Origin: Candidatus Thorarchaeota archaeon | Lineage (GTDB): Archaea > Asgardarchaeota > Thorarchaeia > Thorarchaeales > Thorarchaeaceae | Assembly (NCBI GenBank): GCA_046758445.1 | Contig: JBHIAE010000044.1 | Span: 1 to 23,172, forward strand | Reading direction: 5' to 3' | Length of the DNA: 23,172 nt | Shown here: in pieces, positions 8,247-9,152 of the stretch | Numbering within the stretch: position 1 is the stretch's first letter | Layout: every line of letters starts with the position of its first letter | Position numbers and translations under genes: made by a program | Notes under the pieces: generated by a model | Told to the model about the DNA's origin: nothing | Databases searched by the model: none | What the model saw: the letters and a program-made list of their open reading frames with translations, nothing else

Positions 8247-9152
8247 ATGATGACAGAAGACTTGGAACAAATCGCAGGGCAACATAAGGTCGTAGTTAGA
8301 GACCTCATGAAGGTATATCGTCGTGGACAGAAGGAAGTCATTGCGCTGAGAGGGATTGACTTCGAAGTAGCAAACGGAGAATTCCTATCTATAGTTGGTC
8401 CAAGCGGTTCAGGGAAATCGACGCTTCTGAAGATGCTGGGAGCCCTTGACAGGCCTACTGCCGGCACAATCCTTTTTGACGGGAATAGTCTCACCCTTCT
8501 CGACGACCGAAGGGCCATGCTGTTTAGAAGGCAGAAAGTAGGCTTTGTCTGGCAGACCGGGAACTTGGTACCGGGTCTGACCGCCTTGAAGAACGTGACT
8601 CTTCCCATGAGGTTGGCTGGTGCTCCAAAAGCGGCTGCCAACGAACGAGCGAGAATGCTACTCGGGACAATGGGCCTCGAAGACAGGATCAGTCACAAAC
8701 CCAACCAGCTTAGTGGTGGAGAGAACCAACGTGTTGCCATTTGTGTGGCCCTTGCGAACAAGCCGGAGTTGCTACTGGCTGATGAGGTCACCGGAGAGCT
8801 CGACTCAGAAACCGCAACCATGGTAATGGAGAGTCTGAAAAAGACGAACGAAGAGTTCGGCACAAGCATAGTGAATGTAACTCACAACCCGCGCGTCGCG
8901 CAGTACGCAGAGAGAGTTCTCCACATAAGAGACGGACTCATAGAGGGTCAGAAACACGCAGTCTACGGAGACATCACAGAGATTGACGCAAAAGGAAGAA
9001 TGGTCATCCCAGAGACTGTTCGAAGACTTGCAGGGATTAGGAAGAGAGTGGTCTTAAGGGTCACACCCGATGGCCTGCTTCTCAGCCCACTCAGTTCCCA
9101 GGACCTAGATAATGAAGTTCCTGAAACAGGTGTGGGGACAGCAGAGCCCTGA
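8247..9152 (+). CDS. ABC transporter ATP-binding protein (LolD-like) with C-terminal AbrB/MraZ/SpoVT-like domain (ATPase 2)
   Basis: GPSGSGKST, FVWQ, LSGGENQR, LLLADE and VTHN are all intact. The C-terminal EIDAKGRMVIPETVRRLAGI..RVVLRVTPDGLLLSP matches the swapped-hairpin AbrB pattern. Confidence 0.92.
   Translation: MMTEDLEQIAGQHKVVVRDLMKVYRRGQKEVIALRGIDFEVANGEFLSIVGPSGSGKSTLLKMLGALDRPTAGTILFDGNSLTLLDDRRAMLFRRQKVGFVWQTGNLVPGLTALKNVTLPMRLAGAPKAAANERARMLLGTMGLEDRISHKPNQLSGGENQRVAICVALANKPELLLADEVTGELDSETATMVMESLKKTNEEFGTSIVNVTHNPRVAQYAERVLHIRDGLIEGQKHAVYGDITEIDAKGRMVIPETVRRLAGIRKRVVLRVTPDGLLLSPLSSQDLDNEVPETGVGTAEP

Follow-up and report, generated by a model that had tools for sequence, protein, structure and literature searches.

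Type VII ABC machines (MacB, LolCDE, FtsEX, BceAB, and YbbAP) are actively studied, and we know of none whose ATPase carries a C-terminal domain. Such domains are familiar from type I importers. Those of MalK, MetN, and ModC adopt TOBE or NIL/ACT folds, and their ligands are small molecules or regulator proteins rather than DNA; the MalK–MalT pair couples transport to transcription. BceAB signals its own activity to a kinase, and thus activity-coupled gene control has a precedent within the type VII superfamily. The other class of proteins relevant here is built on the swapped-hairpin barrel. Swapped-hairpin dimers are interleaved and obligate, and DNA is, to our knowledge, the only known ligand of this fold. 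Known AbrB-type regulators engage several barrels per operator, as with the AbrB tetramer, the MraZ ring, and toxin–antitoxin oligomers.

Published work on both classes offers specific points of reference. In E. coli YbbAP, two copies of one ATPase are held by one double-FtsX permease (YbbA2:YbbP1), and a conformational change of the complex has been described (PMC12646458). For MraZ, a DXXXR motif has been defined whose residues make base contacts. Base contacts come from Lys13, Arg15, and Arg86, and both binding and repression are lost when these residues are changed to alanine (PMC12957436).

The window analyzed here, a stretch of 23,172 nucleotides from a Thorarchaeota archaeon, contains an operon in which these two classes meet: An ABC ATPase of type VII, hereafter ATPase 2, ends in a swapped-hairpin half-barrel. 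The features of the gene block are as follows.

1–606: Ras-like domain, at the start of the gene block
983–1627, minus strand: divergent membrane protein of 214 aa, containing several hydrophobic helices and, at its C-terminus, a soluble part of ∼70 aa
1628–1922: divergent promoter region, between the 983–1627 gene and ATPase 1
1923–2594, plus strand: ATPase 1, the tail-less paralogue (223 aa; PF00005; ∼44% identical to ATPase 2)
2605–5430, plus strand: permease A (941 aa; two FtsX domains and a MacB periplasmic core; assigned with synteny)
5430–8243, plus strand: permease B, the likely partner of ATPase 2 (937 aa; two FtsX domains, with PF02687 in two stretches; order conserved in the family)
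8247–9152, plus strand: ATPase 2, an ABC ATPase with an AbrB-like tail (301 aa; ORF list, Pfam, and NCBIfam)
9112–9429, plus strand: 2-TM microprotein after ATPase 2 (weak DUF6404 match, E 2e-4)

The gene order is Ras-like, 214-aa membrane protein (minus strand), ATPase 1, permease A, permease B, ATPase 2, 2-TM microprotein, a second permease pair A′ and B′ with two reading frames each, and AspRS (minus strand). Other genera of the host's family show synteny over this entire block, from the Ras-like gene through AspRS. Permease B ends 4 nt ahead of ATPase 2. Homologues of ATPase 2 start at the second ATG (8250), and its orthologues fall into >180 clusters that are named as Thorarchaeota ABC proteins. 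The 2-TM microprotein is conserved only from about residue 22–31 onward, and its true start may be the ATG at 9199. With that start, the gene's apparent overlap of 41 nt with ATPase 2 may be spurious. Farther downstream, the A′ permease (9539–12282) is read as a 770-aa frame with an overlapping 163-aa frame and a frameshift near 11790–11850, and the B′ permease (12283–15141) as frames of 430 and 520 aa with one stop codon between them at 13576. The A′ and B′ orthologues are single genes of ∼940 aa.

ATPase 2 itself can be divided into the following parts.

8247–8948, plus strand: nucleotide-binding domain of the MacB/LolD/FtsE type (residues 1–234; PF00005, E 1.9e-32)
8949–8972, plus strand: linker QKHAVYGD (residues 235–242; Q235, H237, G241, and D242 invariant; column identity 0.90)
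8973–9095, plus strand: swapped-hairpin half-barrel of the AbrB/SpoVT/MraZ type (residues 243–283; net charge +4; Pfam/NCBIfam, PDB profile, AF2, Foldseek, and VIA)
8985–8999, plus strand: loop D247-A-K249-G-R251, the DXXXR motif (invariant in 24 orthologues)
9096–9149, plus strand: acidic C-terminal tail, variable (residues 284–301; net charge −5; column identity 0.42; pLDDT <60)

The nucleotide-binding domain is complete, with a Walker A motif (GPSGSGKST), Q103, the signature LSGGENQR, a Walker B motif (LLLADE), and H213. All of these catalytic motifs, the Q-loop and H-loop included, are invariant in an alignment of 24 orthologues. Among NCBIfam models TIGR02211 (LolD) fits best, with 227.5 bits against an equivalog cut-off of 307.75, and the protein was consequently classed as LolD-like rather than as LolD. 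Given the intact motifs and the adjacent FtsX-type permease genes, ATPase 2 is a type VII (MacB/LolD/FtsE-type) ABC ATPase.

Bases 8970–9095 of the plus strand encode residues 242–283 of ATPase 2, DITEIDAKGRMVIPETVRRLAGIRKRVVLRVTPDGLLLSPLS, and the peptide that had first drawn attention to this region corresponds to residues 243–281. When the last 72 aa are searched alone, PF04014 (MazE_antitoxin/SpoVT-AbrB) matches with 24.7 bits, which equals the gathering score (E 2.2e-5), whereas the same model gives 21.8 bits on full-length ATPase 2 and falls under the cut-off. The AbrB family model TIGR01439 reaches 26.5 bits on the tail against a cut-off of 28.3 (E 4e-6), and the MraZ model matches with E 4e-4. 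The E-values of PF04014 (2e-5) and TIGR01439 (4e-6) are clearly significant. A profile made from 12 fused tails of several Asgard lineages, searched against PDB sequences, finds the AbrB N-domain as its best match (1z0r, 2k1n, and 1yfb; E 2.4e-4), with all four strands aligned. Together with the Pfam and NCBIfam scores, this value indicates that the resemblance of the tail to AbrB is well above chance.

Structure prediction leads to the same fold. An AF2 model of residues 235–301, computed from an alignment of 46 sequences, has a pLDDT of about 90 or more across residues 245–284, and the first hairpin is unpaired in this monomer model, as is expected for a swapped hairpin. Foldseek places SpoVT first (rmsd 1.7 Å over 46 columns, 37% identity), followed by AbrB-N, an Sso7c4-like protein, MazE, MraZ, and VapB. 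VIA-align, run exhaustively against 48,161 chains, yields eight with Z ≥2, all eight of the AbrB superfamily. Moreover, residues 239–291 of the ESM Atlas model align to MazE/SpoVT-AbrB clusters with a TM score of 0.62. By AF2, Foldseek, VIA, and ESM Atlas, then, the tail is a beta-beta-alpha-beta-beta half-barrel. No TOBE/OB chain appears at the reporting threshold of Foldseek or the exhaustive VIA search, a result that bears on the listed families and does not extend to those off the list. A TOBE/OB fold is disfavored for the tail, as every listed Foldseek and VIA match is AbrB-type instead. We conclude that the tail of ATPase 2 is a real swapped-hairpin half-domain of the AbrB/SpoVT/MraZ type, by fold and by motif. 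Full-length AF2 modeling with 24 close orthologues gave a pLDDT of 57.6, with the tail <50, and the placement of the tail relative to the ATPase cannot be read from this model.

These results agree with an earlier note on this DNA, which had described a complete and catalytically intact ATPase followed by an AbrB/MazE/MraZ-type tail with a D.kGR pattern. Pfam, the PDB profile, AF2, Foldseek, and VIA concur on the tail, and the pattern is kept as a DxKGR loop that is invariant in the 24 orthologues. The profile and structure searches that the note had proposed return an AbrB-type domain, and the TOBE/OB fold that it had set against its own reading is unsupported by Foldseek and VIA.

Two narrower family assignments were considered and set aside. 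Membership in the MraZ family does not fit a protein with one repeat, PF02381 scores of 17.7–20.7 bits against a cut-off of 23, and neighbors that are permeases and not division genes. An antitoxin identity does not fit a locus that has no MazF, PIN, or similar gene nearby. A scan of 19 window proteins for toxin families found none, and ATPase 2 is flanked by an FtsX permease and the 2-TM microprotein.

Conservation of the tail was evaluated within the host's family, where it is present in ∼300-aa open frames in 72 of 85 other genomes; many of the misses are incomplete genomes. Mean column identity in 24 orthologues is 0.88 for the tail, 0.90 for the linker, and 0.86 for the nucleotide-binding domain. 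Thus, the AbrB tail and linker are as conserved as the ATPase domain. The loop D247-A-K-G-R251 conforms to the DXXXR motif, and DxKGR is found in 162 of the 170 fused proteins gathered. Invariant residues of the tail are concentrated in the beta1–beta2 loop and the helix (E245, D247, A248, K249, G250, R251, P255, T257, and R259), and the beta3–beta4 side of the domain is variable. The AbrB part is basic in all 24 orthologues (+2 to +5), and the last 18 residues are acidic in all of them (−3 to −8). Counted by hand, bacterial and Heimdall tails come out close to neutral, as does AbrB-N. Net charge was therefore dropped as a test of DNA binding, since it does not discriminate.

The fusion is not confined to the host's family. 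It occurs also in other Asgard lineages, in Anaerolineae, in a Clostridia MAG, and in Paenibacillales. Another Asgard family (G001) has a tailed ABC ATPase of 286 aa, and a further Asgard genome (G076) has the same architecture. Heimdall/Hod and a related Asgard family have proteins of 319–339 aa in which the AbrB part is succeeded by a C-terminal CxxC...CxxC zinc ribbon (L015, L016, L017, L018, L021; P0313, P0163), and in one Heimdall/Hod genome the tailed ATPase follows a single 924-aa double-FtsX permease. One metagenomic protein of 344 aa (P0215, a single sequence on a 5-kb contig) joins an ABC ATPase to two tandem AbrB-like repeats. This arrangement resembles that of MraZ and could place a whole barrel within one chain. 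The existence of the zinc-ribbon forms and of this two-repeat protein suggests that the barrel itself matters.

Among bacteria, 112 of the 151 Paenibacillales genomes sampled have the tail in frames of ∼290–340 aa, often in several copies, and all nine frames checked are ABC ATPases. The genome of the cultured species Cohnella yongneupensis has three ∼300-aa frames with an AbrB tail. One of its operons (L036, 1750–8381) encodes an HlyD-type adaptor, a 970-aa double-FtsX permease, a tailed ATPase, and a 569-aa solute-binding protein. The bacterial forms have low-complexity acidic linkers of 25–40 residues. Operons with the tailed ATPase as their sole ATPase are found in Cohnella, in a Heimdall/Hod genome, and in G001.

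Seven other full-length tailed proteins were scanned, and PF04014 was under the gathering score or absent in each. Precomputed annotations of tailed proteins list ABC domains only, with MraZ in a few. Since the tail is nearly always under the Pfam cut-off, standard annotation misses the fusion. A full-text literature search found no paper on an ABC ATPase with an AbrB tail, and the combination is undescribed in the literature searched. The suspicion that similar fusions might already sit in databases, with no functional characterization, thus holds for Asgard archaea and bacteria alike; no functional study was located. The survey of its distribution also shows the fusion to be much more widespread than the earlier note supposed, as in the 112 of 151 Paenibacillales genomes and the 72 of 85 family genomes noted above.

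A tree of 33 ATPases built from the nucleotide-binding domain places all 20 tailed members on one side of a branch, with ATPase 1 of the host's family outside. This branch is weakly supported (80/31; 76% of bootstrap trees), and only a small, ad hoc set of untailed ATPases was included. One origin of the fusion, followed by transfer between domains, is a possible interpretation of this tree. A count of fusions in a 50%-identity representative library is of limited value, because full-length proteins of the host's family are not among its representatives. Many of the top matches in that library are MraZ or WG-repeat proteins that have in common only xINAKGEMVIPP. WG-type repeat proteins (P0165–P0171 and similar; 400–700 aa, with 5–9 repeats of KWGYINAKGEMVIPP) match the AbrB-tail profile with E-values of up to 1e-13 through the xINAKGxxVIP motif alone, and they are a trap for searches with short profiles.

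How might two half-barrels come together on such a machine? In the arrangement that we favor, one FtsX permease, itself an internal duplication, would carry two copies of ATPase 2, whose tail halves would interlock below the ATPases as one permanent swapped-hairpin barrel. The 2:1 stoichiometry of YbbAP, the operons in which the tailed ATPase is the sole ATPase, and the obligate-dimer nature of the fold all point to this arrangement, and by analogy two tailed ATPases probably do share one double-FtsX permease with their halves forming one barrel.

A different pairing can be drawn from the operon of the window, which has two ATPases and two tightly coupled permeases. Each permease could take up both ATPases, one copy of each; tails from the A and B complexes would then pair and thereby bridge the two. 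Alternatively, the tail could dock a protein partner in the manner of an antitoxin, a scheme that fits the MazE- and VapB-like layout, with a disordered acidic stretch after the AbrB domain. However, operons exist in which the tailed ATPase has no second ATPase beside it, no toxin-like gene accompanies ATPase 2, and the sequence of the acidic tail is unconserved. We regard bridging or docking as quite improbable.

The earlier note had suggested a dynamic scheme in which ATP-dependent dimerization of the ATPases also assembles the DNA-binding fold. Stated fully, the halves would fold only at the ATP-closed ATPase dimer, and DNA binding would report each transport cycle. The fold does need two chains, and type VII ATPases are apart in the nucleotide-free state, which counts in favor of such gating. 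On the other side, it is unlikely that an interleaved barrel of eight strands would come apart and re-form with every turnover, the open state can probably be bridged by two linkers of at least eight residues, and the 25–40-residue linkers of bacteria remove any geometric coupling. Because the dimers are interleaved and obligate, and because the ATPases are probably already together on one permease as in YbbA2–YbbP, a dimerize-to-fold switch is unlikely, and folding gated by each ATP cycle strikes us as very improbable.

With the permanent barrel as the preferred arrangement, the question becomes what it contacts. Pairing alone would add little, since the permease already holds both ATPases, which suggests that the barrel probably binds something. 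The barrel would offer its invariant DxKGR loops and a positive face to DNA, and ATPase 2, either bound to the transporter or transiently released from it, would act as a regulator of its own operon. The acidic tail could compete for the DNA-facing positive face. Further observations favor DNA binding: DxKGR is the base-contact motif of MraZ, the most conserved face of the tail is the DNA-binding face of AbrB and MraZ, the AbrB part is basic, at +2 to +5 in the 24 orthologues, and certain lineages have gained a zinc ribbon or another repeat. Drawn as it is from homology and the conservation pattern, autoregulation through DNA binding by the barrel has, in our judgment, a little less than an even chance of being correct.

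The chief competing explanation is that the tail is a pairing or regulatory domain that operates without DNA, like the C-terminal domains of MalK, MetN, and ModC. Such a domain could set the geometry or opening amplitude of the two ATPases, see to it that one permease is loaded with two tailed subunits rather than with ATPase 1, or bind a small or protein effector, and the DxxGR loop would then be structural. Several features count against DNA binding. The position of AbrB Arg8 is Thr or Ser in the tail, and the Arg24 equivalent is unconserved beyond the host's family. One Heimdall/Hod genome has His in place of the key Arg, another Asgard genome has Asn there, and Ser replaces the Asp in Heimdall/Hod forms; these natural changes in some Asgard lineages fit a DNA-free role, as do the acidic flanks (the tail in the host's family, the linker in bacteria). 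The eight-residue linker of the host's family is short and invariant, which suggests that the barrel is rigidly docked against the ATPase, possibly through the conserved face. Only one of the two paralogous ATPases has the tail. Furthermore, each transporter complex would present one barrel, whereas known AbrB-type regulators bring several to an operator.

Other evidence weighs against this DNA-free role. We know of no swapped-hairpin barrel that functions without DNA, and we count this against the proposal. The low-complexity bacterial linkers of 25–40 residues would make a poor clamp, and K249 and R251, which are exposed in the loop, do not vary. In addition, pairing by the tail would be redundant if a single-chain permease already holds both ATPases (PMC12646458). 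On balance, we hold a DNA-free role to be a credible but somewhat doubtful explanation.

The divergent promoter region offers a candidate site for such a barrel. Four short elements were located there.

1711–1717: GTAGTAC, a further box in the promoter region
1802–1807: GTATAC box, upstream of the TATA-like element
1817–1820: GTAC box, upstream of the TATA-like element
1833–1841: TATA-like element ATTTATTAG, from the footprint of orthologous intergenic regions

The footprint compared 19 orthologous intergenic regions upstream of ATPase 1 by 9-mers with ≤1 mismatch. ATTTATTAG is present in 14 of the 19 and TAGTACAAT in 12 of the 19. The TATA-like element lies ∼82–91 nt ahead of the ATPase 1 start codon in these regions, and GTAGTACAAT starts 31 nt before the TATA box in most of them. 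Directly upstream of ATTTATTAG, TAGTACAATTCTTnGTACTTCGAAGGAGT is found in most ATPase 1 promoters (loci L120–L134 and L024; 1795–1845 in the window). A second conserved box, ACTATTCTAT, is located near the start of the divergent gene. The exact pattern GTAC-N7-9-GTAC has no match in the window, and the promoter has the variant GTATAC-N9-GTAC. The GTAC-box element upstream of the operon TATA box is a candidate site for the tail.

The divergent gene itself deserves consideration. Its 214-aa product has no Pfam match, and it is syntenic in four other genera with 54%–58% identity. This protein may serve the cluster as a regulator or sensor bound to the membrane. The statement that no separate regulator is visible in the cluster is therefore weak, given a conserved membrane protein transcribed divergently at 983–1627.

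A stronger version of autoregulation is a one-component flux sensor, in which the barrel is split over two motor subunits and operator binding varies with the state of the transporter, either through ATP closure or through release of the ATPase. We consider this version unlikely. If it were true, the machine would set the transcription of its own operon, and Bacillota, Chloroflexota, and Asgard archaea would all have conserved such a device. DNA binding would make ATPase 2 the first ABC ATPase with a direct role as a transcription factor, and its tail would be the first barrel of the AbrB type to be assembled on a membrane machine. If the barrel does not bind DNA, then it would be the first of its fold to serve purely as a protein module. 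In either case, the tail is a widespread module that annotation has overlooked, present in Asgard archaea and in Paenibacillales that are easily grown.

Comparison with the known systems shows that each shares some features of ATPase 2. MalK, MetN, and ModC likewise have an extra domain after the ATPase; theirs is paired under the ATPase dimer and links the state of the transporter to regulation, as the tail might do, whereas the added fold of ATPase 2 is AbrB-type and its machine is of type VII. The closest matches in profile and structure are the N-domains of the Bacillus regulators AbrB, Abh, and SpoVT (1z0r, 1yfb, 2k1n, and 2w1t; VIA Z 4.5–4.7), which share the half-barrel, the DxxGR loop, and the equivalents of Arg15 and Arg23. 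Those domains are N-terminal in small cytosolic regulators, whereas the tail is C-terminal on an ABC ATPase. It has no C-terminal tetramerization or GAF domain, and its Arg8 equivalent is Thr or Ser. MraZ, the repressor of the dcw cluster (1n0e, 9qlg, and 9r4j), has an identical D-x-K-G-R loop and is among the structural matches. However, MraZ has two repeats per chain and forms 8- to 12-mer rings on four boxes, whereas ATPase 2 has one repeat and is encoded with a membrane machine and not in a dcw context. The type II antitoxins MazE and VapB, also among the structural matches, combine an AbrB-type domain with a disordered acidic tail, but in ATPase 2 this domain is fused to an ATPase, no toxin gene is adjacent, and the sequence of the acidic tail is unconserved. 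Unlike ATPase 2, YbbA and BceA have no AbrB tail, and Bce signals via a separate two-component system. The resemblance of YbbAP–TesA and BceAB–BceS to the machine proposed here is found in its plan, with two FtsX modules and two ATPases per permease (PMC12646458).
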